Origin: Patescibacteria group bacterium
GTDB lineage: Bacteria; Patescibacteriota; Patescibacteriia; GWA2-46-9
Length of the DNA stretch: 64,000 bases
Direction: 5' to 3'
Assembly (NCBI GenBank): GCA_041675205.1
Contig: JBAYUF010000005.1
Coordinates: 6,159-70,158, forward strand
Shown one piece after another: positions 1 to 24,101 of the stretch. Each line of letters opens with the position of its first letter. The stretch's first letter is position 1. Under the pieces are notes generated by a model, which did no database searches, was not told the DNA's origin, and saw nothing but the letters and a program-made list of their open reading frames with translations. The translations under genes and the position numbers were made by a program.

Positions 1-5
1 AAAAT

Positions 6-446: not shown

Positions 447-450
447 GCCG

Positions 451-1764: not shown

Positions 1765-1826
1765 ATTGCACGCGCTCTGGTTTACTGCGGAAGTTGCTTG
1801 CCTGCGTCGTGCTATACTGCACTGAT

Positions 1827-4444: not shown

Positions 4445-4464
4445 TTTCTTGTATACTCAGGTCT

Positions 4465-5868: not shown

Positions 5869-5886
5869 GGTTGTTCGTCAGCGTTT

Positions 5887-8132: not shown

Positions 8133-8137
8133 TTGCT

Positions 8138-8860
8138 ATGAAGATGCCGATAGTTGTCGCCAATTGGAAAATGTATTTGAACGTACCTGAAAGTGTTGCC
8201 TTGGCTCAGAAACTGGTGCGGGCACCGCGTCTGCCTGTTACGGTCGTCGTTTGCCCGAGCGCTATAAGTATCTCAGCCGTGGCTGATATTCTGCGGGGTA
8301 GCGCTACCAGCCTTGGTGCGCAGTTGGTTAACACAGCGGTACGCGGTGCGCATACGGGGGGTGTATCGGCGGCAGATTATGCTTCTCTTGGTGCCACCTA
8401 TGCCATTGTTGGCCATTCAGAGGTACGTCGACGAGAGGGAACTGATGTGCATGCTTTGCGTGAGCAGTGCCTAACAGCACTCGCCAATGGCTTGACGCCC
8501 ATACTATGCATTGGGGAGACGCTGGAGCAGCACAATGAAGCAAGCTCGATACTGCGTGAACAATATACACAAGTAGTTGGTTCAGGACTCCCTGGTTCTT
8601 TTTTGGTTGCGTATGAGCCACTATGGGCAATCAGCGCCACGTCCGGCGCGCATCCGCTGTTAATTGAAGACGTTGCCGAGTCTAGTGCACTGCTTCGGTC
8701 GTTTATTGATGACGCGGTGCCTGTTTTGTATGGCGGCAGCGTGGACCAAACAAATGCGGCAGGGTTCATCGGCGCACATGGTTTTGATGGTGTACTCGTT
8801 GGTGCGGCGAGTACCGAGGCGGTTTCATTTCAAAATATTATTGCTCAAGTAGCTCGTTAA
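8138..8860 (+). CDS. tpiA: triosephosphate isomerase
   Basis: ANWKM N-terminus; catalytic loop AYEPLWAIS/GT; about 240 aa. Confidence 0.9.
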   Translation: MKMPIVVANWKMYLNVPESVALAQKLVRAPRLPVTVVVCPSAISISAVADILRGSATSLGAQLVNTAVRGAHTGGVSAADYASLGATYAIVGHSEVRRREGTDVHALREQCLTALANGLTPILCIGETLEQHNEASSILREQYTQVVGSGLPGSFLVAYEPLWAISATSGAHPLLIEDVAESSALLRSFIDDAVPVLYGGSVDQTNAAGFIGAHGFDGVLVGAASTEAVSFQNIIAQVAR

Positions 8861-8862
8861 GT

Positions 8863-9774
8863 ATGCTGTACGACGTTTTACCCATCCTCGTTCTCTTCGG
8901 TGCTATTGTTGGTTTTGTGATAACGGTTGGCAGACGGTGGTCGGATATACGCTTAATGAAGATTGAACATCTTCCTGAAGTTATTACAGCTACGAAGAAG
9001 CGACAGTTATTGCTTCGTGGTTTGCAACGTCGTTTACGCGAGCGAACAGGGCACCTTTGGCAGCGCACTGCGGCGCTTCGCGCTGAAACGGGGGAACGTC
9101 TTGGTGACTTCTATGAACGGCTTCTCGAATTAGATCGCCGGTATCGACATGCGAATCCTTCATCCGCCGCAGATGTCTCAACGACCGATATTGCCTCGCT
9201 TTTAGCTGTTGCAAAGAACGCCGAACAGACAGGTAACAAAGAAGAAGCGGAACGCACGTACCTCGATATCATTACGCATGACCATCGCAACACGGAAGCC
9301 TACCGAGGTCTTGGCCGTATTTACTGGAACGCCGGAAACCGCGAAGAAGCTGCGCAGTCGTTCGAATATGCGCTGCGGCTTGATCCACGTGACGCCGAAA
9401 CGTATGCATTGCTCGCCGCAGTGAGCGTGGAGCTAGGTGCCTTGGCGCGAGGTTGTAGTGCCTATGAGCAAGCCGTCTCCTTTGAGCCCGATCATGTGCC
9501 GTATCGTATTGGTCTCGGTGACACGCTTGTCAGTATGGAAGACTTCCCAAGTGCCATTGCAACATTTGAAGCGGCGGTGGCGTTGGAGCCGTCAAATCCT
9601 CGTTGCCTTGACCGACTCATCGATGTTTGTATACTTGGGGGTAATAAGCGGCTTGCGACTAGCACTTTACGGCACTTAGCCACGGTTAATCCTGACAATA
9701 ATAAGCTTCAGGAGTTCGAGGATCGTATAAAAGCGATGCCTCGAAAACGCCGGACGACTGAGCCGTCGAGCTAG
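8863..9774 (+). CDS. TPR-repeat protein with N-terminal membrane anchor
   Basis: Hydrophobic N-terminus followed by repeated TPR-like helices (AYRGLGRIYWNAGNREEAAQSFEYALRLDP...). Confidence 0.6.
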   Translation: MLYDVLPILVLFGAIVGFVITVGRRWSDIRLMKIEHLPEVITATKKRQLLLRGLQRRLRERTGHLWQRTAALRAETGERLGDFYERLLELDRRYRHANPSSAADVSTTDIASLLAVAKNAEQTGNKEEAERTYLDIITHDHRNTEAYRGLGRIYWNAGNREEAAQSFEYALRLDPRDAETYALLAAVSVELGALARGCSAYEQAVSFEPDHVPYRIGLGDTLVSMEDFPSAIATFEAAVALEPSNPRCLDRLIDVCILGGNKRLATSTLRHLATVNPDNNKLQEFEDRIKAMPRKRRTTEPSS

Positions 9775-9804
9775 ACCAAACAAGCTGTTTTTTACGTCTT
9801 TGTA

Positions 9805-9880
9805 GGCCCACTTAGCTCAGTTGGTAGAGCATCTCCATGGTAAGGAGAAGGTCCGCAGTTCGAATCTGCGAGTGGGCTCC
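9805..9880 (+). tRNA. tRNA-Thr (anticodon GGU)
   Basis: Hand-folded cloverleaf: acceptor GGCCCAC/GTGGGCT, D-arm GCTCAGTTGGTAGAGC, anticodon stem TCTCC/GGAGA with loop ATGGTAA, T-arm GGTCCGCAGTTCGAATCTGCG. Confidence 0.8.
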
Positions 9881-9991
9881 ATTCGACTCGGTTTGCCTAT
9901 GGCAAACCTCGCTCATGGCAAGCCATCTATATTGAGTCGAATGTCCTGAGCGACTGTAAGGAGTCGAAGGGCGAGTGATAAGTTTTAGTCT

Positions 9992-10078
9992 GGGTGGTTA
10001 CCGAAGTAGTCAAACGGACCTGACTGTAAATCAGGTGGCCCTGTGCCTTCGAAGGTGCAAATCCTTCACCACCCACCA
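9992..10078 (+). tRNA. tRNA-Tyr (anticodon GUA), long variable arm, CCA encoded
   Basis: Acceptor GGGTGGT/ACCACCC, anticodon loop CTGTAAA, extended variable arm, T-loop TTCGAAG. Confidence 0.8.
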
Positions 10079-10214
10079 GCCTTCGCTCAAGCTTCGGCTG
10101 GCGTGCCAGCCATAGTTTCAACGACGGTTGGCGGCCAGACGATATAGTAAAGCGGCTGTTCGCCGTAGTTTTAACGAAGGAGAACAAATTGTCAGTTGCC
10201 ATAAGTAAATATAC

Positions 10215-10290
10215 GCCGCCTTAGCTCAGCTGGTAGAGCAACACTTTTGTAAAGTGAAGGTCCCCGGTTCGAGTCCGGGAGGCGGCTCCA
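10215..10290 (+). tRNA. tRNA-Thr (anticodon UGU), CCA encoded
   Basis: Acceptor GCCGCCT/AGGCGGC, anticodon loop TTTGTAA, T-arm CCCGGTTCGAGTCCGGG. Confidence 0.8.
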
Positions 10291-10389
10291 ATAGCGTACA
10301 TTTTGATTTATCAAAATGTTTGCAACGTCAGTAGTCCCGCCAGCGGGCGGGGCTCCAGTAGTGTATAAAACAGGATTAACTACTAAAAA

Positions 10390-11280
10390 ATGTTTCTTTT
10401 CTTTTTCAATCCGTTTTTGCTAGGGTACTTTATTTTACCCGCGTCATTGTTTGCTCTGGCGGTCGGTTTCTATAAATATCGTCAAAAGGAATTATCCGTC
10501 AATCAGAAAGCAAAAAAAACTGCCTTTGTTTCAGCAGTTCTGGTTTTTGTTGTGTACACTGCCTACACAATTTATCTGATTTCAATCTCGACTAATTCAA
10601 CCGCAATTTTGGGCGTAATAGAAATACCATTCTCTGGCATTCCGCTCGCATTATTTGCTTACGCAATTGAATGGTCCCTAGCATATTTGTTTTTTTCTAA
10701 AGTTACAAAGGAATCATATACCGGAGAAAATCATTCGCGACGGATAATCATTGCGGCTGTCGTAGTTGCACTCGTCGTAATTCTAGGATCGGTGGAAAGC
10801 TATAGAACCGCTCTTGCCATGAAAGTCAGCAATAGTACAAAGGCAGGGGAGATACAAAAAGTCTACGATTCTTTTTTTGTGAAGTACGATGATAAAATTC
10901 TGAGCCAAATTGCAAGTAATGAGTACACTCCTGTTGAGGTTTTAAACGAACTTGCCCACGATGATCGCGAACGTGTTCTTCACGAGGTTGCTCGTAATCC
11001 AGCAACGCCTCTCGAAGCGCTACGCTTTATGTATGAAAATCAGGGCAGCGAAAGATTTGGTGACAGATACGTAGCGTATGATCTCGCAGTTAATCCTAGT
11101 ACACCGCTCGACATATTGCTTGAACTTAGCAAGAGCGATGATGATGTGGTTCGAAGCAATAGCACATATAATCCCAATCTTCCCCTTGAAATTTTGTGTG
11201 AGCTAAGCAAAGAGCAAAAGGGCGTAGTGTCGTCGCAGGCCAAGTCAAATATCAAAGCCCGCGGGGTCGCCTGTCCTTAG
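10390..11280 (+). CDS. membrane protein with C-terminal leucine-rich-repeat-variant (LRV-like) repeats
   Basis: Four or five N-terminal TM helices, then three repeats of the NP(S/A)TPL(D/E)xLxxL...VR(S/E) type. AT-rich relative to the flanks. Confidence 0.55.
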   Translation: MFLFFFNPFLLGYFILPASLFALAVGFYKYRQKELSVNQKAKKTAFVSAVLVFVVYTAYTIYLISISTNSTAILGVIEIPFSGIPLALFAYAIEWSLAYLFFSKVTKESYTGENHSRRIIIAAVVVALVVILGSVESYRTALAMKVSNSTKAGEIQKVYDSFFVKYDDKILSQIASNEYTPVEVLNELAHDDRERVLHEVARNPATPLEALRFMYENQGSERFGDRYVAYDLAVNPSTPLDILLELSKSDDDVVRSNSTYNPNLPLEILCELSKEQKGVVSSQAKSNIKARGVACP

Positions 11281-11344
11281 TTGACAGTTACCCCATTTTC
11301 TATCACACTGTGTTGACTTACTAGTATCAAAACAATAGAACGAT

Positions 11345-11500
11345 ATGTCCCAGGATAACCTGATAAAATTGGAGTGCACGGTTTGCAAGCGTGTTAACTA
11401 CCATACTTTTAAGAATAAGAAGAAGATTAAGGAGCGTCTTGAGATCAAGAAGCACTGCGAATGGTGCAAGAAGCACACGTTGCATAAGGAAACGAAGTAA
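11345..11500 (+). CDS. rpmG: 50S ribosomal protein L33 (51 aa; absent from the ORF track because it is under 60 aa)
   Basis: Translation [51 protein letters not shown] shows the L33 CxxC...CxxC zinc ribbon and the [10 protein letters not shown]-terminus. Sits just upstream of tRNA-Trp as in many bacteria. Confidence 0.85.
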
Positions 11501-11620
11501 CTAGTCGTGGATGGCTTATGGCAAGTAGCTGTAAGTAGCATTCATTCCGGGAAAGAATTAAACTATCAGGGTGTTATGACAATCTAGCGTTGCCATTTGC
11601 CAATGGCCTTTGCTAACTAC

Positions 11621-11694
11621 GGGGGCGTAGTGAAGTGGCATCATGCGGGTCTCCAAAACCTAAGTCGTAGGTTCGATTCCTACCGCCCCTGCCA
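11621..11694 (+). tRNA. tRNA-Trp (anticodon CCA), CCA encoded
   Basis: Acceptor GGGGGCG/CGCCCCT, D-stem GTGA/TCAT, anticodon stem CGGGT/ACCTA with loop CTCCAAA, T-arm GTAGGTTCGATTCCTAC, discriminator G. Confidence 0.75.
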
Positions 11695-11695
11695 G

Positions 11696-11735
11696 AAAAA
11701 TCCGTCACCATTTGGTGTACGGATTTTTCTGTTAT
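11696..11735 (+). terminator. intrinsic terminator hairpin (AAAAATCCGT...ACGGATTTTT), A- and T-flanked
   Basis: Perfect 10-bp stem flanked by an A-run and a T-run. A second, near-identical copy lies at 14652-14690. Confidence 0.7.
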
Positions 11736-11860
11736 TGGAAGGCGGAGTCGAACCTGGGGAAGGGGTCGGGGAACGGGAGTTCCCCGTGGCGGAATTATTC
11801 AAACCGAGGGGTTTGAAAGAGTCGCGGAGCGACGATGGTTCTAGCGAAGCGGATTCTACC

Positions 11861-11882
11861 GCCCCTGCCAGTTTGAGCTAGC
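11861..11882 (+). repeat. direct repeat of the tRNA-Trp 3' end (GATTCTACCGCCCCTGCCAG), att-like
   Basis: Matches 20/21 nt of tRNA-Trp positions 11674-11695. A further partial copy (CATCTACCGCCCTTGCCA) lies at 16262-16280. Confidence 0.7.
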
Positions 11883-11996
11883 ACAAGAAGCATCGTTTCA
11901 AGAGAGTACACGTTAGGATCAATACCCAGGCGAAAGCCTGGGTATTGGCGTATTAGGGCGAAAGAATTGAATTTGCATATATGATATTATGTCCTT

Positions 11997-12755
11997 ATGC
12001 GCGATGATGAACAGCCGGTATGTCCCAACTGTGGTTGGCCACTCCACATAGGCCAGCATGGGCCCCATCCTGAAGATGCTCCGAGAGAACCAACTCATCC
12101 ATTGCCGGAGGATTTGGCTCATCGGTTTGTGAACGGCACTATTTTTAATGATGCTGAAGTAGTAGCTGAAGGAGAACATGGTGATATCTATCGAGGCTTT
12201 ATTCGGGAGGAGCCGAATATTGGTATTCAAGCGGCGAAACTTCGGATAGATTTTCAGAAATCTAGTTCTTCAAATGCTGACACTCCAAAACAGGTACGCT
12301 TTGAATACGTACAGCCGGATAAAGTTGATTCAGAAAGTGATGTATTAGTGGCAGAAATGCATATCGCTCCATGGGGTAAAAATAAATTTGTTTTACAGCA
12401 CCGTTACGTTCAACCTGAGTTTCAAGGTAAACTTGGTCTTGGGACTAAACTTTTGCAGCAGGTAGAAAGTTGGTTAGCGCAAGTGGCGAGTGAAAAGAAA
12501 GAGGATGTGATTCTCGAAGTAGATACAGGCCAGAAGGGAGTGATTTCTTGGGTCGAGAAAAATGGTTTTTCTGTTGATCCTGATCAAGTCAAAGAATTGC
12601 AGGAGGTTGTGGATCATCCTGACCGATATGCGCTCGAAGACGTTCCTGATGTTGACGGATTGACTAAACCCGAATTCATTTTTAGAAATGATACCCCGGG
12701 CAGAACCGTTATTGACGCAGTTCGTTTTACTTTTAGTAAGAAGATTTCTGGTTGA
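11997..12755 (+). CDS. GNAT-family acetyltransferase with N-terminal CxxC zinc-ribbon-like motif
   Basis: CPNCGWPLH N-terminus; GNAT motif A-like FQGKLGLGTKLLQQVE. Confidence 0.5.
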   Translation: MRDDEQPVCPNCGWPLHIGQHGPHPEDAPREPTHPLPEDLAHRFVNGTIFNDAEVVAEGEHGDIYRGFIREEPNIGIQAAKLRIDFQKSSSSNADTPKQVRFEYVQPDKVDSESDVLVAEMHIAPWGKNKFVLQHRYVQPEFQGKLGLGTKLLQQVESWLAQVASEKKEDVILEVDTGQKGVISWVEKNGFSVDPDQVKELQEVVDHPDRYALEDVPDVDGLTKPEFIFRNDTPGRTVIDAVRFTFSKKISG

Positions 12756-12765
12756 ACAGAGTCCG

Positions 12766-12856
12766 CTCGAGGTGCATTGTTTTGATCATTGAAACAAGGC
12801 CCCAAAAGCCTTACTGGTGTTGACCGATTGAGGTTCGATCTCGAGGTGGCCTGCCA
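12766..12856 (+). repeat. structured intergenic repeat, family A, copy 1 (CTCGAGGTG...GGTTCGATCTCGAGGTGGCCTGCCA)
   Basis: Aligned by eye with four other copies. Conserved ends and a central AAGGC/GCCTT hairpin; the 5' hairpin varies in sequence but keeps its structure. Confidence 0.75.
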
Positions 12857-13032
12857 AAAGAGTTCTGTCTGTGAAAGGCCTTTTTAATACAGTAATCATT
12901 GACAAGGGATGCCTTTTTCCATACAGTGCTGCTCGTCGTGGATGTAGAAGATTCGTAAGTTTCAATTCACAACTCAGGGCTTGGTCGGCTCTGACCCACA
13001 GAGAAGCCGAAGAAATTCGGCAAGGAGGAACC

Positions 13033-13614
13033 ATGACCGCAATCCGAAGAGTAGTTGATATGCTGGGGCTCAATTGCTTGCCGTTACTCGTCTCGTTCCG
13101 CAAGGCACATGACGATCGACGGCAGGGAGGTGCTCGCAAGCCGCGTCGCATCGCGCCTCGTGTGCTCATCCGCTGCGGATGCTGCAAGCAACGCGTCGAG
13201 GTGTGTGTTGATGAGCATCCGACGGGAGATCCTCATGTTGACATGCTCGAAATCAACGGCGTCTATGGCAGCATCGACCAGTGGCGACAGGTGCTGCTGC
13301 CACTCCTCGGTGTACCGATGCCGGACGCTGAGCGTCGCGAAGCTCGTCTCGCGCTCGTTCGCCGTCGTATGGTGAACGACGGCAGGATGAGGGAGGCGGG
13401 AGACTGCAGATCGTGTGGCGATCCGGCGGAAGAGCCTGAAGGCGAAGACGTTCCCGCCGGTCTCTGTTCGGAGTGCCAGGATATGCAGAAGAAGGGCTGG
13501 CTCAGCAACACGGAGCCCTCGCGACCACTGGTGCCACGCGCATCGGATCGGAGAGAGCCTCTTACCCGAAGTGGCCCGGCGTATTCGCTTTACGATCCAG
13601 CGCGTCAGGGCTGA
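13033..13614 (+). CDS. Cys-rich hypothetical protein in a high-GC cassette
   Basis: Roughly 62% GC against about 40% in neighbours. Strong SD (AAGGAGGAAccATG). Multiple CxxC pairs (CGCCKQ, CRSCG, CSECQ). The track ORF extends upstream to 12871. Confidence 0.5.
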   Translation: MTAIRRVVDMLGLNCLPLLVSFRKAHDDRRQGGARKPRRIAPRVLIRCGCCKQRVEVCVDEHPTGDPHVDMLEINGVYGSIDQWRQVLLPLLGVPMPDAERREARLALVRRRMVNDGRMREAGDCRSCGDPAEEPEGEDVPAGLCSECQDMQKKGWLSNTEPSRPLVPRASDRREPLTRSGPAYSLYDPARQG

Positions 13615-13626
13615 TCGAATGTGCGT

Positions 13627-13680
13627 GGGGCGGGTTCGGTTGGTTGCAACAAGCTTCCGACCGACCCGCCCTTCGTCCTT
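13627..13680 (+). repeat. GC-rich imperfect palindrome, family B copy 1 (GGGGCGGGTTCGGTTGG-TTGCAACAAGCTT-CCGACCGACCCGCCC)
   Basis: Long imperfect inverted repeat with a conserved loop. A second copy at 24810-24866 follows the other high-GC cassette. Confidence 0.65.
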
Positions 13681-13711
13681 TTCAAACATTTTTTTATTTG
13701 AAGTTACTGAG

Positions 13712-13803
13712 CTCGAGGTGCGGCGTTTCGTTCATCTAAAATAGACCCCAAAAGCCTTACTGGTGTTGACCGATTGGGGGTTCGGTCTCGAGGCGGCCTG
13801 CCA
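13712..13803 (+). repeat. structured intergenic repeat family A, copy 2
   Basis: Same ends (CTCGAGGTGC ... CTCGAGGCGGCCTGCCA); hairpin GACCG...CGGTC fully paired in this copy. Confidence 0.75.
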
Positions 13804-13848
13804 AAAGAGTTCTGCCCGAGGAGGGCGGGACTTTTTTGTTTTTATTTT
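13804..13848 (+). terminator. intrinsic terminator (AAAAGAGTTCTGCCCG-gagga-GGGCGGGACTTTTTT)
   Basis: GC-rich stem with G-U pairs, A-run upstream and T-run downstream. Related copies at 12857-12885 and 16281-16320. Confidence 0.65.
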
Positions 13849-13910
13849 ATTCAGATTCAATTTCTCTGTCTGATACCAGGTCTTTCGGCGAGATATGACA
13901 GTATCAGAAT

Positions 13911-14486
13911 CTATATAAAATCGGTTTTTTGAAAATGCTGCCAGTCTTTTTGTTGCCATGTTCCGCCCCAGTCCCATCCATATTTCTTAAAAAGCTTAAC
14001 CACATGGCCGTCCGCTACTATTGCTCCTGTCGCACCGGGGTCATATGTCGCCCCTGGAGGAAAGACTGTTCCATCAATCGCGACGTAAGGGTTTGTTGCC
14101 GGGTTGATATCTATAGCAAGGCCGTATGAGTGATTAGACGGCTTATTTGTGCCGTAGATCAAGCGGTAGTTAAATGCTGAAGTGTTATTCGCAGCCATGC
14201 TGTTCTCGTCAATCCAGTTGTAGGCGACAATCGGAAGCATTTTTTCAATTGGGAAGCGTATCTCATAAAGTTGCTTGAAAATCTCCAGTACTTCTTGTTG
14301 CACCTTTTTATTTATAACTAGTTGTCCTGTATGTGTTCTTTTGTCAAAAGAAATGTAGTCGATAGTCAAAAGAGCTTGGCTATGACGAACTTCGTCGGGC
14401 ATTTGTCCAGCCAAGGATTCTTCTATTGTCATTGCGCTATCAATAATTTTGCTCATGTTTGCTCTCAGCAAGGTTATAACTTGCAT
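13911..14486 (-). CDS. M15-family zinc D-Ala-D-Ala carboxypeptidase/peptidoglycan peptidase (VanY/endolysin-like)
   Basis: SNHSYGLAIDINP and DWQHF zinc-ligand motifs. Start uncertain (Met at 14486 or 14456); the track ORF runs on into repeat A3. Confidence 0.6.
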   Translation of the reverse strand: MQVITLLRANMSKIIDSAMTIEESLAGQMPDEVRHSQALLTIDYISFDKRTHTGQLVINKKVQQEVLEIFKQLYEIRFPIEKMLPIVAYNWIDENSMAANNTSAFNYRLIYGTNKPSNHSYGLAIDINPATNPYVAIDGTVFPPGATYDPGATGAIVADGHVVKLFKKYGWDWGGTWQQKDWQHFQKTDFI

Positions 14487-14560
14487 ATAAATATTATCAT
14501 AAATAGGAACTCGTGATCGGGCCGTGTCACTTTTGTCACTTTTCACTAAATCCGCAGGTG

Positions 14561-14651
14561 CTCGAGGTGTGTCGTTTTGATCATCGGAAAAAGGTTCCAA
14601 ACGCCTTACTGGTGTTGACCGATTCGGGTTCGGTCTCGAGGTGGCCTGCCA
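14561..14651 (+). repeat. structured intergenic repeat family A, copy 3
   Basis: CTCGAGGTGT...GGTCTCGAGGTGGCCTGCCA, followed directly by the AAAAATCCGT terminator copy. Confidence 0.75.
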
Positions 14652-14690
14652 GAAAAATCCGTCACCGTTTTGGTGGACGGATTTTTCTGT
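14652..14690 (+). terminator. intrinsic terminator, second copy of the AAAAATCCGTCACC...ACGGATTTTT hairpin
   Basis: Near-identical to 11696-11735. Confidence 0.65.
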
Positions 14691-14773
14691 TGTTGGGTGA
14701 AAGGAATCGAACTTGAGAAGGGGGTCGTAACTGCAAGAGGAGAAGAAAAATTAGATTATGATAGAATAAGGTT

Positions 14774-15844
14774 ATGAAAATTGCAGATATCAATAAGTAT
14801 AGTTGGATAAAAAATTGGGGTGGAAACTGGAGTTTCCTGACGTGTTTTTACTTTGCCAATTACTATACAGGTGAAATGTGGAAGCAGATGGGTAAGGGTA
14901 TAAAAAAAGCCGTCATCATTTCGAATAATGGATATGGTTTTTGTTATTTCGATCCTAGTGATCGAGAATTATATGGAAAATACATAGGACTAAAAATAGG
15001 TAAGAATAAAGCGGCAGCTTTGAAATTTAGTAATGAACTAAAAAATCAAGCCGACACCTTGATTGAATATACTCACAAGTTAAGGAAGATGAAGACCGTT
15101 TCCTCAGTAGAGTATTATGATTTTCTGAGAAAATTTCTAGCATATTCTGGCCCGCACATGAGCATTCGGCCTACAGTTGATTATCTGCCAGAAAAACAGG
15201 TGAGACTGGTTCTGCCAATTTTCGAAAAAACTAGATTGTACGTAGAGGATGTTTATTTTGCGACAGAAGTGTTTATGCGTCATTGGGCCGAACAATTATC
15301 TGAACGAATGCGAGTCAATCCAAAATTCATACTCTCTTGCACGCCGTCCGAAATTAAGAATTATTGGCTTCATCAAAAGCTACCACCAACAAAGATTTTA
15401 AAAGCGCGATTTGTATCAAGCGGTATTATTTTTGATCGATTAGAAAACAAGGTTTTTGTTGGCCGCACCGTGGAAAGAATTGAAAAACTTCTTCAAGGCA
15501 GGCCGGACAAAAAAGAAATTAAGGGCCAAACAGCCTACGGAGGATTGGTTAAAGGTAACGCAAGAATCATTTTTAATCCTACGGTTCATAGCGCGCGAGT
15601 TTTTCAGAAGGGCGATATATTAATTACTGGAATGACAAGGCCAGAATTTTTACCTTTGATGCGAAAAGCTGGTGCAGTTGTTACAGATGCTGGAGGTATT
15701 TTAAGTCACGCTGCAATTACAGCCCGTGAAATGAAAATACCGACCGTCATAGGCACTACTGTTGCGACCAAAATTTTCAAAGATGGTGATATGGTTGAAG
15801 TTGATGCCACCCACGGAGTAGTAAGAATACTAAAATCACAGTAG
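14774..15844 (+). CDS. PEP-utilizing-enzyme mobile (phosphohistidine swivel) domain protein with uncharacterized N-terminal domain
   Basis: C-terminal GDILITGMTRPEFLPLMRKAGAVVTDAGGILSHAAITAREMKIPTVIG matches the PEP-utilizer His domain (catalytic His in SHAAI). About 37% GC. Confidence 0.6.
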   Translation: MKIADINKYSWIKNWGGNWSFLTCFYFANYYTGEMWKQMGKGIKKAVIISNNGYGFCYFDPSDRELYGKYIGLKIGKNKAAALKFSNELKNQADTLIEYTHKLRKMKTVSSVEYYDFLRKFLAYSGPHMSIRPTVDYLPEKQVRLVLPIFEKTRLYVEDVYFATEVFMRHWAEQLSERMRVNPKFILSCTPSEIKNYWLHQKLPPTKILKARFVSSGIIFDRLENKVFVGRTVERIEKLLQGRPDKKEIKGQTAYGGLVKGNARIIFNPTVHSARVFQKGDILITGMTRPEFLPLMRKAGAVVTDAGGILSHAAITAREMKIPTVIGTTVATKIFKDGDMVEVDATHGVVRILKSQ

Positions 15845-15935
15845 CTCGAGGTGCATCATTTTTGCCATCAAAATAAGGCCCCAAAAAGCCTCACTGGTGT
15901 TGATTGATTGGGGTTCGATCTCGAGGTGGCCTGCC
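15845..15935 (+). repeat. structured intergenic repeat family A, copy 4
   Basis: Begins immediately after the TAG stop at 15842-15844. Hairpin 3 carries compensatory changes (GATTG/CGATC). Confidence 0.75.
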
Positions 15936-16420
15936 GTAGAAGGAGGAGTGTCCGAATGGCTGTTCGTCTTTTCTGTTATATGAGTTGTCTAGACAGGTGT
16001 GTGTGCCTTCACTATACTACTTACTATATGGATGAATCACTTATCATACAAAAGCTGGTTTCCTTGGATGAAAAGATTAGTGGTATTGCGACTCAAGACA
16101 GCCTGATAAAACTTTCTGATGACATCACGCAGGCACTTGATGACCAGCTTGTTATTTTGCAAAGATTGGATTAAGAGAGGCTTTTCACTATGGAACGAAT
16201 AAAGAGAATTGAAGCGGATGTTGAAGAATTAAAATTACAACTGAAAGTGGCTTAAGAGCTTCGACTTCATCTACCGCCCTTGCCAAAAGAGTTCTGCCCG
16301 TCGGGGCGGGACTCTTTTTACGTGAGAGAATATTGAAAAAGAGGGTATTTTTTATTGTAGAAAGATAGTACAGCGAGAATCAGAGGTATGGTAAACTGAT
16401 TTTGCTGACTAAATGACTCT

Positions 16421-16918
16421 ATGAGAACTAGAAAAGAATTAGAGAGGTATGTTACTTCAGTCGGAAAGGATATTAAGGATTGTAGAATAGCTGTCGGTTC
16501 ACTCATTTTTGACAAGGAAAATAAAGTCATACTACTTGAACGTGGAGATAGTTCACGCGATAGTGCTGGTAAGTTTGAAGGTGTAGGCGGGGGTGTTGAC
16601 GCCGCCGAAGAAAATTTGCACGAAGCGCTACAACGAGAGATACATGAGGAAATCGGTGAAGTTCAGGTTGATATAAAAGAGTTACTCACCGTAATGATTC
16701 TACCAGGCTCGACGGGCGGTACGTGGGTTGTTCCAATTTATTTATGTAGATTAAAAAGCGGGGAGCCAATAGTTATGGAGCCTGATAAGATAGTTAAAAT
16801 ACATCATTTCAAGCTGGGGGACATACCCTACAATAAGCTGAGCGCGTATCAGAAAAGTACGATGGATGCTTATCGTGAGAAGTACGGCCAAGAAGTATTT
16901 GACGTTCTTTCGAGTTGA
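16421..16918 (+). CDS. NUDIX hydrolase
   Basis: Nudix box GGGVDAAEENLHEALQREIHEEIGE. Confidence 0.7.
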   Translation: MRTRKELERYVTSVGKDIKDCRIAVGSLIFDKENKVILLERGDSSRDSAGKFEGVGGGVDAAEENLHEALQREIHEEIGEVQVDIKELLTVMILPGSTGGTWVVPIYLCRLKSGEPIVMEPDKIVKIHHFKLGDIPYNKLSAYQKSTMDAYREKYGQEVFDVLSS

Positions 16919-16939
16919 CTTGCAGAAGGGATTATCTGT

Positions 16940-18424
16940 TTGGACTCACTACGTAAGCGAAATATGAAGTTTGATAATTTTGAAATTTACGAAAGAATTT
17001 ATAGTAGCCATTGGTTTCTGACTTCCTACAATGGAATCGGATTTATTTTTGATTTCCCAAAAATCGGCGGTGGCAATTTTCTAAAGAAAGTCATTTATGT
17101 GATGGAAAATCAGATGTGTCGCTATATATTTAATCATAAGGAGTTTGAGCTGGCTGCCAACTATACTGCCGATAAATTAATCAATAATAACAAATGGAGA
17201 AAAGAAGTTTACGAAAAAATTGATTATTTTACAAAACAGTATTTTGATGCAGGAGAAAATTTAAGAGATTCAAATTTATCTTTGCTCTCTAACAAAGAGC
17301 TAATTAAACGCATTCGACGAATAATTGTTTTTCAGCATTACCATCAAGTCTACAGTGTTTTGGCCAATGGAGTAGTTTTAGATGGCCGCAATCATATGTC
17401 GAATAAAATTCGAGATGAATTACGAAATAATTTAAACTTCCCTCCGAAGTTTGAGAATTATTGGAGCACATTAACTCAAATTACGAGGATGAGTCTTCGG
17501 CAGAAAAAAGATTATGAAATTTCTCTTTTAGCAAAAAAGGTTGGAATACTAACTCAGAAACAAATTGAATCAAAATTAAAAAAGCTGCATAAAGAGTATT
17601 GTTGGCTCGACTATAATAATATGGGACCGGCAACGTCGTTTGATGCGTTTCGACAGCAACTTAAAATGGCAAAGCGGAGCGATAAGGACTTGAATGTACC
17701 GAAGCGTTTGGCAGTTTTGAAGAAAAAACAAAGACAATTGATGTCTACATTGAAATTTAACCGAAGGTCTAGATTTTTGATTGCATTAGCCCAACAGGTG
17801 ATTTGGCAGAAAGGGTATCGAAAGGATGTTCAGTATCATGGATTTTATTGCTATGAGCCCTTGTTGCAAGAGCTCGTAAGAAGAAAAAAAGTTTCTGATT
17901 GGCAAACATTGAGTTTCCTATTCCCTTGGGAACTTGAGGGTTATATAAAATCAAATAAACCGACCACTGCTGAATTGGAACAAAGGCGCAAGCTTTCAGT
18001 CTTTATGGTGACAAGAGCGGGACATTCAATCATGGTAGGAAAAAAAGCAAAGATGACTGTAAAAAAATTTGGATCACTTGAAAATTTTACAAGTGTAACC
18101 GAAGTAAGGGGTCAAGTTGCGTATACAGGATTAGTTCGCGGTAAGGTTAAAATCATTCAAACTCCGTCAGACATGGTCAAAATGAACAAAGGGGATGTTC
18201 TCATGTCCCAGGCAACCAGTCCTGATTTACTGCCCGCAATGAAAAAAGCTGGTGCAATTGTTACGAATACCGGTGGTTTAATTTGCCATGCTGCAATAAC
18301 TTCTCGCGAATTAAAGATTCCTTGTGTAGTTGGCACAGCAAAAGCAACCTTAGTCTTTAAAGACGGAGATTTGGTAGAGGTTGATGCAACTAGCGGAGTC
18401 GTAAAAATAGTAAAATCAGAATAG
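16940..18424 (+). CDS. PEP-utilizing-enzyme mobile-domain protein, paralog 2, with larger uncharacterized N-terminal region
   Basis: C-terminal GDVLMSQATSPDLLPAMKKAGAIVTNTGGLICHAAITSRELKIPCVVG is homologous to the C-terminus of 14774-15844. AT-rich. Confidence 0.6.
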   Translation: MDSLRKRNMKFDNFEIYERIYSSHWFLTSYNGIGFIFDFPKIGGGNFLKKVIYVMENQMCRYIFNHKEFELAANYTADKLINNNKWRKEVYEKIDYFTKQYFDAGENLRDSNLSLLSNKELIKRIRRIIVFQHYHQVYSVLANGVVLDGRNHMSNKIRDELRNNLNFPPKFENYWSTLTQITRMSLRQKKDYEISLLAKKVGILTQKQIESKLKKLHKEYCWLDYNNMGPATSFDAFRQQLKMAKRSDKDLNVPKRLAVLKKKQRQLMSTLKFNRRSRFLIALAQQVIWQKGYRKDVQYHGFYCYEPLLQELVRRKKVSDWQTLSFLFPWELEGYIKSNKPTTAELEQRRKLSVFMVTRAGHSIMVGKKAKMTVKKFGSLENFTSVTEVRGQVAYTGLVRGKVKIIQTPSDMVKMNKGDVLMSQATSPDLLPAMKKAGAIVTNTGGLICHAAITSRELKIPCVVGTAKATLVFKDGDLVEVDATSGVVKIVKSE

Positions 18425-18514: not shown

Positions 18515-18598
18515 GCAACAAATCTGCCTTAAACGGCAGGTTTTTTATTACTCAAAACGACAGGCATCGTGAAGTTAGAACTGTGATAGAATGTATGT

Positions 18599-19015: not shown

Positions 19016-19099
19016 CCCTGCCATCAGAAACGACCCGTAAACTCGGGTCGTTTCTGGTAGAGGGGAGTGGGACATAGAACTGTGATAGAATATTTAAGT
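19016..19099 (+). promoter_or_regulatory. terminator-promoter junction module (CCCTGCCA / 13-bp hairpin / extended -10 TGATAGAAT)
   Basis: Perfect hairpin CAGAAACGACCCG-taaact-CGGGTCGTTTCTG, then GGACATAGAACTGTGATAGAAT. ATG of the next gene is 9 nt after the -10. Confidence 0.6.
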
Positions 19100-20278
19100 A
19101 TGCAAAAAATTACTACAAGCGAGTACGCGGATTTGACACAGCACGAACTAGAGGCGCTGAAACATGAGTTTAACCTTGCGGATGCACATACTCATCAATC
19201 GCAATCGCTCACCCAGCGGAAGATTATAAGTCGACTACCAAGCCTCTGGTACCAATCGGAAAGAGCCACACAGGTCGAAATGGAGAATAAATTTATTCGT
19301 TCTTTTTTTCAGTATCATCAACAGCCTACGGCATTGAAAACACCTTCATTGTTAGTCTATGCAGCCTCCATTGGGATGGTAATTGTCTCTAACTATTTCA
19401 AGAAAAAACAACTGTCCGTTCAGCTGATAACCCCTTGTTTTGATAATCTTCCTGACCTACTAAGAAATCTTGGAGTACCAATTAAGCCGTTGCGAGAAGA
19501 GTTATTAGAGGACGCTAGTGCTATTTATCAGAATCTAGAGCGACATTGTAAAAGTGACGTTATTTTTCTTGTCTCTCCCAATAATCCGACGGGGTTTGAA
19601 CTTACAGGTAACGTAGGCACTGACTATAAGGCACGATTTAAGGAACTGATTCGCTTTGCCAAGAATCATAATAAAATCCTTGCGTTCGACTTTTGTTTTG
19701 CTTCGTTTATAGTGCAGGATGCAAAAGTACCTACGTTTGATGTCTACAGCCTGCTAGAAAAATCGGGTGTGAGCTATATTGCCATTGAGGACTCTGGGAA
19801 AACGTGGCCGCTGCAAGATGCCAAGGTGGCACTTATTAAAGCGAGCAAGAATCTTTATCCTGAGCTCCACAATATTCATACGGCGTATTTGCTCAACGTT
19901 TCACCATTTATTTTGAATCTTGTAAGCGAGTATTGTGAAGATTCGATAAAAGACAAGGGTTCTAGTATCAAGAACCTGCTTGAACGAAATCGCAAGATTG
20001 TTAAAAAGGAATTAAGCGGAGACCTGCTTGAGTTTATGGAACCTGGCACACTTGTTAGTGTCGCGTGGTTCAAGATTAGAAATTCGAAGATTATGGCAAC
20101 GACCTTGCAGAAGCATCTCTATCGCAAGGCAAGGGTGTACGTATTGCCAGGAACATACTTTTTTTGGGATAAGCCGACCAGGGGAGAAAGGTATATACGA
20201 ATTGCCTTAGCGCGTGACACGATTATGTTCAAAAAAGCAATCGCAAAAGTTAAGAAGGCTCTCTATGCATACAGGTAA
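19100..20278 (+). CDS. PLP-dependent aminotransferase (class I/II fold)
   Basis: SPNNPTG motif and a candidate PLP-lysine in EDSGKTW. Start moved to the ATG at 19100 because the track start at 19067 lies inside the promoter element. Confidence 0.6.
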   Translation: MQKITTSEYADLTQHELEALKHEFNLADAHTHQSQSLTQRKIISRLPSLWYQSERATQVEMENKFIRSFFQYHQQPTALKTPSLLVYAASIGMVIVSNYFKKKQLSVQLITPCFDNLPDLLRNLGVPIKPLREELLEDASAIYQNLERHCKSDVIFLVSPNNPTGFELTGNVGTDYKARFKELIRFAKNHNKILAFDFCFASFIVQDAKVPTFDVYSLLEKSGVSYIAIEDSGKTWPLQDAKVALIKASKNLYPELHNIHTAYLLNVSPFILNLVSEYCEDSIKDKGSSIKNLLERNRKIVKKELSGDLLEFMEPGTLVSVAWFKIRNSKIMATTLQKHLYRKARVYVLPGTYFFWDKPTRGERYIRIALARDTIMFKKAIAKVKKALYAYR

Positions 20279-21023
20279 AGAACTCGCGATTCCTTTAGTA
20301 TCCCCTATGCTTGACGGGGCGATAGATAAAGAGTCCATCAGACGCCTTGTGTCATTCTGCGAACCGTATGTGGATATATATGTTCCATGTCTTTCTTCGG
20401 GTGAAGGTGAGAAACTTAGTTCGAGTCAGTGGTCAGAAGTGGTTAGTGCAGTGAGAAGCGAAACAGACAAACCCGTCTATTGTGGGATTTTGAAAGAGGG
20501 AAAAGAAGAGGTACAACAGTATTTGGTTTTGGCGGCCAAGTATGGGTGTGAGGGCGTTGTTATTAAGGTGGAGATGCTTCATCCAAACAATGGTTTGGAT
20601 TTTTCTGGCCTGAAGCTCATTCTTTATAATCAAGAGGGGTCTAAAGCAACGGCGGCTGAATTACTACAACTATCAAGGCATCCTCAAGTAGTCGCAATTA
20701 AAGACAGTTCTGAGAATGTAAGTTTATTCAACGAGCTCTCGGAGTCTTTAGCTCGGGAGGGGAGTGCGGTGAAATTATATCAAGGAATGGAAACCACGAT
20801 TCTTCAAACGCCTGACGCCGATGGGATGCTCATTTCATTGGCTAATGTAGAGCCGAGCTTTTGTAGAAAACTGCTATCGGAGCAAGGTGGAAAGGCTGCA
20901 CAAGAGCTCGATGGCTACATTGAGCGCTATAATCTAAAAGACGGTCAGTGGTATAAGTCCTTAAAAGAAGCCCTGTATAGTATGAAAGTCATTAACTCTC
21001 CGCAACTTGTTGGCCAGGAGTAA
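20264..21023 (+). CDS. DapA/N-acetylneuraminate-lyase family class I aldolase-like protein
   Basis: AIPLVSPMLDG, SSGEGEKLS and VAIKDSS (Schiff-base Lys context). Overlaps the aminotransferase stop, suggesting an operon. Confidence 0.5.
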
Positions 21024-21024
21024 T

Positions 21025-21510
21025 ATGAAAAATATTTACGTAGATTCAGGCGTATTTTTGGCGATGCATAGCATTGATGAAAAAATCCGTGTTACGTGCA
21101 AGAACTTTTTTGTTGCCAATTTTTCAAAGCAGTTGTTCATGTTGCTGGAAGATGTTGGGCAGTGTGATGCCGTGATTTGGAAGGAAGAAAGAGAATTGCA
21201 GGATGCTTATTATCCATTCATGGACAACTTGCATACGTTGATGAAAATCGAGCGAGTTCCTTATAATAAGGGCGCCTTAGAGAATATTGATGAGCTACGG
21301 ATAATTGATAGTAGTTTCTCTATCAGCGACCTTCTGACCTTGTCTCATGTTAAAGCGAGTGGTGCAGTACTGTATACACTTGGGGTATCTCGTTTGAAAA
21401 TTGATAGCATATGTAAAGCCTTGCCTGAACAGGAGGCGAGTGAACTTAGTTTCGAGCAGCAGCTTGAGCGACTATATCAAGAGTCTTTAAAACTAAGAGT
21501 GGGTCAGTAG
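21025..21510 (+). CDS. hypothetical protein
   Basis: ORF continuing the operon with no recognizable motifs. Start ambiguous (21007 or 21025). Confidence 0.4.
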   Translation: MKNIYVDSGVFLAMHSIDEKIRVTCKNFFVANFSKQLFMLLEDVGQCDAVIWKEERELQDAYYPFMDNLHTLMKIERVPYNKGALENIDELRIIDSSFSISDLLTLSHVKASGAVLYTLGVSRLKIDSICKALPEQEASELSFEQQLERLYQESLKLRVGQ

Positions 21511-21613
21511 CTCCGTGTATACATATCAGGACGGTAACTAGATAAAGCAAAGTTCTGCAGTTGAAGTTCTAGTTTGATAGCTACCCAATTCTAGGTTCAA
21601 ACTTGTGTACTAG

Positions 21614-21692
21614 CCCTGCCATCAGAAATGACCTATAAACTCGGGTCGTTTTTGATAGAGCGAAACAGGACATGGAACTGTGATAATATAAC
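21614..21692 (+). promoter_or_regulatory. terminator-promoter junction module, copy 2 (degenerate hairpin; extended -10 TGATAATAT)
   Basis: GCCCTGCCATCAGAAATGACC...GGACATGGAACTGTGATAATAT. ATG at 21696 is about 7 nt after the -10. Confidence 0.55.
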
Positions 21693-22373
21693 TTGATGAA
21701 AGACAAAGTCATTGTTATTACGGGTGGAAGCAAAGGCCTCGGCAAGGGTCTCGCTAATATTTTGGCAAATAACAGTAATAGAGTAGTCATTTGCGCTCGA
21801 CATGAAGTTGAATTAGATAAGACTGCGAAAGAGATTGGCGCAATCCCTTTTCTTGCGGATGTGGCAAAAGAAGAGGATGTAGAATTGCTTGCCGCCTATG
21901 CTGTAAAAGAATTTGGATGCATTGATTTATGGATAAACAATGCCGGCATTTGGTTGCCCCATGCATCGATTGAAGACACCGATCTAAAAAAAGTGCAAGA
22001 GATGTTTTTGGTTAATGTGTTTGGTACGATGAATGGCTCAAAGATTGCGCTTACGCAAATGAGGAAACAGGGTCATGGAACGGTCGTTAACATTATTTCA
22101 ACAAGCGGATTAATTGCTCGGCCTCAGTCGTCAGGATATGCGGCAAGTAAGTGGGCAGTTCGTGGATTTACTGATTCAATTCGTGAAGAAGTTAAGGGCA
22201 CGGATATCCATGTTCTGAGTGTGTACCCCGGGGGCATGCAAACAGATCTATTTGGCGAACAGAAACCGGAAGAGATGAATAAGTATATGACGTTCGAATC
22301 AGTGGCAGAGAAAATTATTGAAAATTTAGATGCCCTGGAACCATTGACGGAACTAATCATCAAGCGCACGTAA
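21693..22373 (+). CDS. SDR-family short-chain dehydrogenase/reductase
   Basis: TGGSKGLGKG cofactor motif, NNAG, and catalytic YAASK. Confidence 0.75.
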   Translation: MMKDKVIVITGGSKGLGKGLANILANNSNRVVICARHEVELDKTAKEIGAIPFLADVAKEEDVELLAAYAVKEFGCIDLWINNAGIWLPHASIEDTDLKKVQEMFLVNVFGTMNGSKIALTQMRKQGHGTVVNIISTSGLIARPQSSGYAASKWAVRGFTDSIREEVKGTDIHVLSVYPGGMQTDLFGEQKPEEMNKYMTFESVAEKIIENLDALEPLTELIIKRT

Positions 22374-22396
22374 GTTCTGTTCGTTTTTGATAGAAG

Positions 22397-23347
22397 GTGA
22401 CGATGATTCTAGTCCCGCTGTGCGGGACGGATTCAACTATTTCCGAGCCGCTCCTTGTTACGATACGAGACATAGTTGAGTACCTCAAAATCCTATTTAT
22501 GCGATACGATTACAAAATTAGCCGCGCTGTTTCATTCGCCATTGAAACGCACGAAATTAACCAAAAACAAAAGCGGAAGGGAAAAGATATTGCCTACATC
22601 ACGCATCCTCTCACTGTTGGGCTTATATTGTCGCGCTGCGGTGCTAGTGACGAGGTCGTAGTGGCGGGCATACTGCATGATACTGTTGAGGATAGCGTTG
22701 ACGATCACAAAGTAACTATCGCGATGCTTCAAGAACGTTTTGGTAAGAAAGTTGCTGAACTCGTTACTAGTGTCACCGAAACAAACCGAGCGCTGCCATG
22801 GAGTGAGCGCAAGCGTGAAGCACTCGAACATGTTGCATCATTTTCACATGAGGCGTTGCTGGTGAAATCCGCCGATGTCATTAGTAATGCAACCGAAATC
22901 ATAGATGACCACAAGCATGATGGCGACTCAGTGTTTGCTCGTTTTAATGCGCCAAAGATTGATGTTCTTCAGAACTACTTATGGGTAATTACGGCCATTA
23001 TTAAATGTTGGCCAGACAGCCCACTTGCAGAAGACTTGCGTTCCGTTGCTAATGGACTACAGGATATGGCTGCGCTTCATTTCATGCAGAACCATCGAGC
23101 TATTGTTATTGAGTATCGGGATTACAGTGAAGACATGCCTATTCAGTGCCCGGTGTGTGATTGGAGTGGTACGCCCAAGGAAAGTGGACTCCTCAATACT
23201 GACAGCCAGGCAGCGCTTGATGTCTCCTGCCGTAATTGCGACAAGATTCTGCTCGTCGTAGAGTATGCCTCTGGCAATGAGGTGGGTAACGAAAGTGAGA
23301 TTGCATTTATTCCCAAGATGAAAAAGAAAATGGACGAAAGTAGCTAG
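22397..23347 (+). CDS. HD-domain phosphohydrolase (RelA/SpoT-type ppGpp-hydrolase-like) with C-terminal CxxC...CxxC zinc ribbon
   Basis: AVSFAIETHE...GKDIAYITHPLTVGLIL...GILHDTVED (HD motif); CPVCDW...CRNCDK at the C-terminus. True start may be the Met at 22499. Confidence 0.55.
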   Translation: MTMILVPLCGTDSTISEPLLVTIRDIVEYLKILFMRYDYKISRAVSFAIETHEINQKQKRKGKDIAYITHPLTVGLILSRCGASDEVVVAGILHDTVEDSVDDHKVTIAMLQERFGKKVAELVTSVTETNRALPWSERKREALEHVASFSHEALLVKSADVISNATEIIDDHKHDGDSVFARFNAPKIDVLQNYLWVITAIIKCWPDSPLAEDLRSVANGLQDMAALHFMQNHRAIVIEYRDYSEDMPIQCPVCDWSGTPKESGLLNTDSQAALDVSCRNCDKILLVVEYASGNEVGNESEIAFIPKMKKKMDESS

Positions 23348-23611: not shown

Positions 23612-24101
23612 GTTAACTTTTCAGTTGATGGAAAAAAGCTCACAGGTAACACTTTTTTCCAGAAACACTTCAGTTAAAAAATCCAGCCGCTTTGATTATT
23701 CATGGATGGGAGAGTAAACAGGACAGAGGTTTTTTATTAGCGGAGGCGCTCGCTGAACAACGTGACTAAAAAGTTTTATCACAAATTGCCAGGAGGGGGA
23801 GTTGAGGAAGGTGAAGACATTGAGACTGGATTGCGTCGAGAATCGTTTGAGGAGATTGGTTGTACAATTGAGTATATTCATGAGCTAGGAACTATTGAAG
23901 AATATCGAAATGAATGCAGAAACGGGGGAGGTCGGCATCAAATCTCACATTGCTTCATCGCCGAAATTGCTGGAGATACTTGAAGTTGCTATCGAGAAAT
24001 TAGAAAGCGAGGCAAGTGTTGAAGATTATGAGGGCAAATTTATAAGATTAAGAGATCTTTTGTTTCTTAAAGAAGCAAGTTCGTGGATGCAGATCAATTG
24101 A
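23612..24101 (+). pseudogene. NUDIX hydrolase pseudogene (at least two frameshifts)
   Basis: The Nudix box LPGGGVEEGEDIETGLRRESFEEIG lies in one frame while the N-terminal and C-terminal segments continue in other frames (23612-23677, 23762-23983, 23895-24101). Confidence 0.55.

Follow-up and report, generated by a model that had tools for sequence, protein, structure and literature searches.

Introduction

The rifampin phosphotransferase RPH has three domains, namely an ATP-grasp domain, a rifampin (RIF)-binding domain comprising residues 327-754 and a swivel domain, whose histidine carries the β-phosphate of ATP from the ATP-grasp domain to the substrate, and its catalytic residues are Arg666, Glu667 and Lys670 (PMC4844700). 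In the two-component relatives HpeHI and CreHI and in the phenylphosphate synthase PpsAB this architecture is split, with an H component made up of a RIF-binding-like domain and the swivel domain and an I component corresponding to the ATP-grasp domain (PMC12167813, 2025). ATP-dependent phosphorylation by enzymes of the HpeHI type needs both components, and H alone shuttles phosphate between substrates; HpeH, CreH and PpsA have a size of about 71 kDa and about 45% identity among them (PMC12167813). Here we describe two genes, called A and B, from a chromosomal contig of a Patescibacteria group bacterium. The window, i.e. the whole stretch of DNA that was analyzed, has a length of 64,000 nucleotides and corresponds to bases 6159-70158 of this 71,480-bp contig. 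We consider it probable that the products of A and B are paralogous H-type parts of split RPH-like dikinases, in which a helical RIF-binding-like domain is joined to a C-terminal swivel histidine.

Domain organisation and phosphocarrier histidines of A and B

The two genes and the parts of their products that are relevant here are located as follows.

14774..15844, plus strand: gene A, putative short-type dikinase module, open reading frame (ORF) of 356 amino acids (aa) with ATG start
Residues ~1-245 of A: helical substrate-binding-like domain
Residues ~246-356 of A: swivel phosphohistidine domain
15707..15709, plus strand: His312 codon of A, predicted phosphocarrier in the motif GGILSHAAITARE, invariant in alignment A1
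16940..18424, plus strand: gene B, putative long-type dikinase module, ORF of 494 aa counted from TTG
16964-18088, plus strand: substrate-binding-like domain of B
18089-18424, plus strand: swivel domain of B
17813..17827, plus strand: codons K283-G-Y-R286-K287 of B (486-aa numbering), invariant basic motif of the substrate-binding domain
18287..18289, plus strand: His codon of B (His450 in 494-aa, His442 in 486-aa numbering), predicted phosphocarrier in the motif GGLICHAAITSRE, invariant in alignment A2

For B, the ATG at 16964, giving a protein of 486 aa, is a likelier start than the TTG at 16940 according to public gene calls and the N-termini of homologues. The sizes of A and B are 39 kDa and 56 kDa, respectively. 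A preliminary description of this DNA had proposed that both ORFs end in a swivel domain with a catalytic histidine, and the coordinates, the two histidine motifs and the Pfam assignment confirmed this. PF00391 is the sole Pfam domain of either protein and lies at the extreme C-terminus, at residues 277-348 of A (E 5.8e-23) and 416-486 of B (E 5.2e-23). Neither PPDK_N (PF01326) nor PEP-utilizers_C was detected by the Pfam search of A and B, and the N-termini were without any Pfam match. The alignments A1 (A family) and A2 (B family) comprise 65 sequences each; among the modules collected from related loci, the swivel histidine is 100% conserved in 24 of 24 short and 82 of 82 long ones. As also proposed before, A and B are paralogs: BLASTP gave 43% identity across their last ~188 residues (E 2e-40).

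Existing annotation hardly goes beyond this domain. Public names for the two families are only 'PEP-utilizing enzyme' (PEP, phosphoenolpyruvate) or 'phosphohistidine swiveling domain-containing protein'. Matches to the NCBIfam models of PpsA, PPDK, RPH, PigC/RedH and Enzyme I are confined to the ~110 residues at the C-terminus and score far under the cut-offs, except that some RPH-like 'PRK06241' models cover residues 226-491 of B with model positions 612-868. The unnamed PRK08296 models, which describe proteins of ~570-630 aa with a C-terminal swivel domain, match only the last ~110-125 residues, likewise far below cut-offs. In PHROGs the match is confined to the swivel domain and leads to a 'kinase' family, and a PADLOC search gave no match for A or B.

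The N-terminal domains resemble the substrate-binding domain of RPH

The N-terminal domains had been described as different from each other. This view had to be revised, as the family profiles of A and B align along their whole length (hhalign probability 100%, E 7e-61), and even the N-most parts alone, A 1-170 and B 1-300, which cannot be aligned by BLASTP, are matched by hhalign with a probability of 92% (E 6e-7). Compared with A, B has about 130 extra residues in the form of inserted helices, and the binding domains of the two proteins are about 14% identical. AlphaFold2 models were obtained for A (pLDDT 94.4, pTM 0.86) and B (pLDDT 93.0, pTM 0.89); common to both is the order strand, helix, hairpin, long helices, second hairpin and swivel domain.

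When the models were compared with the PDB by Foldseek, the RPH from Listeria (RPH-Lm; entries 5hv1, 5fbu, 5fbt and 5fbs) was the top match for both. The model of B aligned with RPH over ~570 columns with E 7e-13 and a TM-score of 0.48-0.52, compared with ~0.2 for matches restricted to the swivel domain. For A the corresponding E value was 7e-12. On the level of sequence, the A2 profile aligns to residues 612-866 of RPH, reaching ~150 residues into the RIF-binding domain. Judged by these models and profiles, the N-terminal domains of A and B are neither ATP-grasp domains nor PEP-binding barrels and are predicted to be reduced relatives of the substrate-binding domain of RPH. The direct evidence for an RPH-like N-terminal domain is strong for B; for A the assignment is founded mainly on the homology to B and on the fusion found at locus L023 (see below). 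The earlier statement that ATP-grasp or PEP/pyruvate-binding signatures are not obvious in the N-termini agrees with the lack of a Pfam signal and with the RPH-like models. Ordinary PEP synthase or PPDK nucleotide-binding domains, which the preliminary description had named as the other outcome, were not what AlphaFold and Foldseek returned.

The basic motif of B was analyzed further by alignment. K283, R286 and K287 are invariant columns in A2, and the motif K-G-Y-R-K-D aligns with 'GYREYPKY' of RPH, the block containing R666, E667 and K670, 1-2 residues out of register. Across the binding domains of the 82 divergent long modules only R294, R315, E331 and R349 (494-aa numbering) are conserved to more than 70%; R294, which is the motif Arg called R286 in the 486-aa numbering, reaches 85%. 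In A, no equivalent of the Arg-Glu...Lys block of RPH was identified with confidence.

Adjacent or fused ATP-grasp domains in orthologues of B

In split RPH-like dikinases the H component combines a substrate-binding-like domain with a swivel domain and has no ATP-grasp domain, and A and B therefore correspond to such a component in layout. The preliminary description had suggested searching for a separate ATP-grasp partner elsewhere in the genome. Such partners were found with orthologues (L005, L095, L097, P0021 and P0074) and not on the at least 70 kb of contig that were searched. At locus L005 (Nanoarchaeota), where the orthologue is 60% identical to B, a PPDK_N gene of 239 aa lies directly upstream and overlaps the start of the orthologue. 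The same position is occupied by an overlapping 220-aa PPDK_N gene at L095 (64% identity to B), and at L097 (59% identity) a 314-aa PPDK_N gene ends 1 bp before the orthologue. In the B-type proteins P0021 (864 aa) and P0074 (801 aa), PPDK_N is fused to the N-terminus, so that the domain order of RPH is recreated. For the A type, the first module of a giant protein at L023 has its A-type domain directly after PPDK_N (residues 340-679). Together with the fold match, these arrangements support the initial idea of an RPH-type phosphotransferase or split dikinase.

Between lineages, both bacterial and archaeal, the stand-alone ATP-grasp proteins share ~60% identity. In the genome GCA_964348825.1, a lone A-type gene (L090) is located ~130 kb away from a seven-module array with an ATP-grasp gene (L092), which means that modules distant from an ATP-grasp gene do occur.

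Two further observations concern ATP-grasp genes. A 317-aa unannotated gene upstream of the B orthologue at L008 was considered as a divergent ATP-grasp gene and rejected (hhalign probability 0.2%). The C-terminus of P0021, 'ILQSRPITTLKK', is a repetition of the conserved motif found at the C-terminus of this protein's own ATP-grasp domain; this may be an assembly artefact or the trace of a tandem ATP-grasp/module repeat.

Module families, tandem arrays and giant fusions

Patescibacteria and DPANN archaea have many members of both families, with a length of ~350 aa for the A type and ~480 aa for the B type. A phmmer search with the N-terminal domain of B against 1.84 billion cluster representatives gave 421 clusters with E <= 1e-3 and 112 with E <= 1e-10; among them are proteins of 1000-2309 aa in which two to four stretches were matched. 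A metagenome scan with B gave 4 loci, and the matches listed from a genome scan were mostly distant relatives and true PpsA genes.

The loci fetched were scanned with custom hidden Markov models for the ATP-grasp domain, the two N-terminal domains and the swivel domain. One or more modules were found in each of 53 non-redundant loci; a few of these, which have a single module and lie at the end of a contig, may represent truncated PpsA genes. Two or more modules are present in 23 of the 53 and four or more in 14, and no locus has more than one ATP-grasp. Module lengths are bimodal (~340-380 aa and ~460-520 aa), and A and B represent one class each.

The largest loci are tandem arrays. Twelve modules in 21 kb were found at L016 (Nealsonbacteria, 483-21361), 8 tandem modules at L026 (Woesearchaeota, 2-17842) and 9 modules plus one ATP-grasp gene at L019 (3-16734). 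At L092 (4051-15831), seven consecutive genes encoding proteins of 494, 485, 330, 353, 410, 473 and 497 aa are followed by a HAD hydrolase gene and one ATP-grasp gene. These four arrays thus have 7-12 divergent paralogous modules on one strand with at most one stand-alone ATP-grasp gene each. Four modules together with a single ATP-grasp gene are present at L094 as well as at L029.

In other cases, in genomes of DPANN archaea and Patescibacteria, the modules are fused into one polypeptide. According to Pfam, the ORF of 3761 aa at L023 (6221-17506, plus strand) has one N-terminal PPDK_N and eight PF00391 domains. One PPDK_N is combined with four swivel modules at L044 (6935-12919, 1994 aa) and with three at L038 (5957-10156, 1399 aa). 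At L036 (1-8814) the contig end interrupts an ORF of at least 2937 aa with eight swivel domains, and the N-terminus of this ORF, together with any ATP-grasp domain, lies outside the contig. A literature search of incomplete coverage gave no description of these families, arrays or multi-module fusions in Patescibacteria or DPANN.

Close relatives of B with up to 60% identity are also present in archaea (P0016/L005 of Nanoarchaeota, P0063 of Altiarchaeota and P0118 of Micrarchaeota). Since the B gene furthermore has a low GC content of 0.35, this suggests that B-type genes were transferred between Patescibacteria and DPANN archaea.

Genomic setting of A and B and phosphohydrolase genes beside the modules

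The remaining features at the locus are the following.

16421..16918, plus strand: Nudix hydrolase gene, 165 aa (PF00293, E 9e-15), between A and B and directly upstream of B
16297..16310, plus strand: terminator-like hairpin followed by a T-run, found by consensus scan between A and the Nudix gene
18520..18543, plus strand: terminator-like hairpin of 9 pairs with a T-run, found by consensus scan downstream of B

The Nudix neighbor and the AT-rich setting noted in the preliminary description are both real: the Nudix gene lies between A and B, and the GC content is 0.35-0.44 across the A/B region compared with ~0.5 in the flanks. B is the gene with the lowest GC content in the window (0.35). 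The Nudix gene ends 45 nt before the ATG of B, and the two are probably co-transcribed. The hairpin at 16297-16310, a consensus match, suggests that A would be transcribed apart from Nudix and B. The gap of 576 bp between A and the Nudix gene is unusually long and holds a small ORF from public gene calls (16028-16174, 48 aa), after which the hairpin at 16297-16310 comes.

Nudix genes also accompany B-type genes elsewhere, immediately upstream at L010 and immediately downstream at L022. They are not orthologous, and the Nudix proteins of the window and of L010 have only the Nudix box in common (E 0.007). The association of Nudix genes with modules is thus a weak lead. Genes of the His_Phos_1 family are found at L004 (9282-9995), upstream of the B orthologue, as well as beside the ATP-grasp gene at L031 (12367-13026) and L094 (5672-6349), and a HAD hydrolase gene closes the L092 array. 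The recurrence of phosphohydrolases beside modules is a lead towards a kinase-phosphatase pairing. Genes of ~220 aa adjoining ATP-grasp genes were also considered as one family and rejected as such, being mostly unrelated; two of them (L031 and L094) are the His_Phos_1 genes mentioned, and one is a pyruvoyl arginine decarboxylase. A family of 225-317 aa without Pfam match lies directly beside modules at three unrelated loci, L008 (7045-7998), L090 (9136-10068) and L019 (13858-14535). Its L019 and L090 members share 36% identity (E 1e-40); it is not an ATP-grasp family and has no member in the window.

Further away from A and B, four tRNA genes (Thr-GGT, Tyr-GTA, Thr-TGT and Trp-CCA) are located at 9806-11694 of the window, just ahead of the lower-GC stretch, and this cluster may be the border of an acquired region. 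A GC-rich patch (0.55) within the AT-rich region, at 12786-13744, contains overlapping long ORFs of 247 aa on the plus strand and of 201 and 133 aa on the minus strand; the 201-aa ORF is a public gene call without a precomputed Pfam family, and an Rfam scan of 12786-13744 gave no match. Downstream of B on the same strand, at 19067-23347, follow genes for a class I/II aminotransferase, a DHDPS-like protein, a DUF6190 protein, a short-chain dehydrogenase and an HD_4 (SpoT-like HD) protein. This cassette is kept only in the near-identical contigs L001-L003, and no link to the modules was established. Finally, a 73-aa ORF with a Nudix box at 23762-23983 looks like a second, truncated Nudix gene.

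Proposed mechanism and alternative explanations

By analogy with the characterised enzymes, a reaction cycle of A and B would start with the binding of ATP by a separately encoded PPDK_N-type ATP-grasp protein of ~310 aa. The swivel histidine, His312 of A or His442 of B (486-aa numbering), would then attack the β-phosphate of ATP, giving phosphohistidine, AMP and Pi. After return of the swivel domain to its own substrate-binding domain, a bound small molecule would receive the phosphate on a hydroxyl or enol oxygen, and Arg and Lys residues of the K-x-x-R-K helix might assist in this step. The small-molecule substrate assumed in the preliminary description, an antibiotic or metabolite, is in line with the RPH-like binding domain, while nothing points to an antibiotic. 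As their binding domains are only ~14% identical, A and B probably act on different substrates. On the family level the loci appear to follow a hub-and-spoke design, in which one conserved ATP-grasp protein would serve many divergent modules. We only tentatively propose, and would not count on it, that A and B are orphan spokes of this design and that in such lineages the ATP-grasp neighbor of B was exchanged for a Nudix or histidine-phosphatase gene. Such an exchange would hint at a coupled cycle of phosphorylation and hydrolysis or at another phosphate donor.

Several observations weigh against the assignment of A and B to split RPH-like dikinases. A tblastn search of the window with the PPDK_N parts of P0021 and P0074 gave no match, and the upstream 6 kb of the contig contain a ribosomal protein operon and no ATP-grasp gene; the sequence covered comprises the 71.5-kb contig up to its final ~1.3 kb. 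The ATP-grasp partner of this genome would have to be encoded outside the sequence searched and is assumed from the orthologues, none being seen here. The related loci are similar in this respect, as 35 of the 53 are also without ATP-grasp within ~10 kb, and in this lineage as well as at L010 a Nudix gene takes the place directly ahead of B instead. The likeness of A to RPH beyond the swivel domain is modest, with a TM-score of 0.42-0.43 compared with ~0.28 for swivel-only matches, and the catalytic Arg-Glu pair of RPH is not exactly reproduced in B, where no Glu is aligned. Furthermore, A and B have 39 and 56 kDa compared with ~70 kDa for the H components, and they share neither the size of the HpeH/PpsA clade nor a close relationship to it, as judged indirectly by their size and by the PRK08296 models matching the swivel domain alone.

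The lack of an ATP-grasp gene on the searched contig sequence and near the 35 related loci would also fit an explanation that we regard as unlikely, namely that A and B are autonomous phosphotransferases or phosphocarriers working without any ATP-grasp protein. The swivel histidine would obtain its phosphate from a phosphometabolite bound to the N-terminal domain and hand it over to a second acceptor, or it would work together with a neighboring phosphohydrolase such as the Nudix protein. HpeH alone does catalyze phosphotransfer between substrates (PMC12167813), and phosphohydrolases recur by the modules in the form of Nudix (window, L010 and L022), His_Phos_1 (L004, L031 and L094) and HAD (L092) genes. 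However, B orthologues with 59-64% identity have an ATP-grasp gene next to them or an ATP-grasp domain in the same protein, which argues that the ancestral function needs one, and lone modules coexist with a distant ATP-grasp gene in one genome (GCA_964348825.1). The Nudix neighbors, moreover, are not orthologous to each other, and no Nudix enzyme is known to act as phosphate donor to a swivel histidine. As no partner was seen, a function independent of ATP-grasp is still conceivable for this particular lineage. A reversal of the reaction, in which the modules would take phosphate from host-derived high-energy phosphometabolites and generate ATP from AMP and Pi with the ATP-grasp protein, as does PPDK in some anaerobes, has its basis only in the reversible chemistry of PPDK and PpsA and in the fermentative, energy-poor lifestyle attributed to these organisms. 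We nevertheless deem it very improbable, since only few donors with an energy like that of PEP could drive it, which would be a misfit with up to 12 divergent modules, and all characterised RPH-like enzymes run forward.

We give equally little credit to an Enzyme-I-like or regulatory phosphorelay, in which the helical domain would dock a protein partner, as the helical subdomain of the N-terminal part of Enzyme I (EIN) docks HPr, and not a small molecule. Foldseek also lists EIN structures (E ~1e-5), and similarities of RPH subdomains to proteins of the phosphotransferase system (PTS) were noted by Stogios et al. (PMC4844700). However, the EIN matches are far weaker than those to RPH (TM-score ~0.2-0.3) and are explicable by the shared swivel domain, neither a PEP-binding domain nor an HPr-like gene was noticed beside modules in the loci viewed, and the partner that was found is an ATP-grasp protein. 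That A and B are only what is left of PEP synthase or PPDK genes after truncation or decay, without a function of their own, could be suspected from the NCBI name, which is only 'PEP-utilizing enzyme', and from PEP synthases being the best sequence matches of the swivel domain. The regulatory Thr that PpsA and PPDK have two residues before the His is Leu or Ile here (PMC12167813 for Thr), and the swivel domain lies at the C-terminus, which is its place in RPH, whereas in PpsA it is central. Neither PPDK_N nor PEP-utilizers_C gave a signal, the N-terminal domains have a confidently predicted, different and RPH-like fold, and both proteins belong to large full-length families with invariant residues, so that domain, fold and family evidence together practically exclude such remnants.

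Patescibacteria and DPANN archaea have tiny genomes with few recognisable metabolic enzymes, and some such genomes devote up to ~20 kb to module arrays. If one ATP-grasp protein indeed charges many different substrate modules, this would allow a compact system to phosphorylate a broad spectrum of compounds, with scavenging, detoxification or antibiotic resistance as the purpose. The RPH-like dikinase superfamily would thereby gain a multiplexed format, and genome-reduced symbionts would be provided with a broad ATP-driven battery for phosphorylating host-derived metabolites or toxins. With regard to annotation, the numerous genes of these organisms annotated as 'PEP-utilizing enzyme' or 'PEP synthase' would not encode gluconeogenic enzymes, and a substrate-binding domain without a Pfam model is defined. 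The two genes alone are a modest finding; the multiplexed architecture to which they led is unusual and testable.

Comparison with known systems

With PEP synthase (PpsA) and PPDK, A and B share a homologous swivel domain, for which the best PDB sequence matches are 8a8e and 9dae with E values down to 1e-40 for the family profile, and the partner ATP-grasp is of the PPDK_N type. A and B differ from both in having no PEP/pyruvate-binding TIM barrel, in the C-terminal position of the swivel domain and in the absence of the regulatory Thr before the His. From PTS Enzyme I they differ by the lack of PEP-utilizers_C, and the Enzyme I matches are weak and confined to the swivel domain.

RPH (5FBS/5FBT/5FBU and 5HV1) is the best structural match and has in common with A and B the C-terminal swivel histidine and the homology of the RIF-binding domain. 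The conserved basic motif of B lies on a helix that is aligned with the one carrying Arg666/Glu667/Lys670 of RPH. In contrast to RPH, no ATP-grasp domain is fused to A or B, whereas it is fused in the relatives P0021 and P0074 and in the L023 protein. The binding domains are smaller, with ~245 and ~375 residues in A and B compared with ~430, the identity is 12-22%, and there is no reason to expect rifampin to be a substrate of A or B.

With regard to function, the two-component RPH-like dikinases HpeHI, CreHI and PpsAB are the nearest known systems. Their split is the same as that seen here, since the domains of A and B are those of the H (or PpsA) component, with no ATP-grasp domain among them. 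In these systems the separate ATP-grasp protein of ~310-340 aa is the I or PpsB component, and orthologues of B have such a gene directly upstream. A and B differ from the H components in length (356 and 486 aa compared with ~600-630 aa) and in occurring in Patescibacteria and DPANN and not in aromatic-degrading bacteria. Furthermore, no ATP-grasp gene is encoded together with A and B in the window or the upstream 6 kb of the contig, whereas one is present with modules at L005, L095, L097, L092 and L094. In the families of A and B a single ATP-grasp goes with many modules, as arrays or giant fusions, and we did not find such an organisation described for the HpeHI type. Overall, the most fitting description of A and B is that of minimal H-type modules from subfamilies of the RPH-like superfamily that are specific to Patescibacteria and DPANN.

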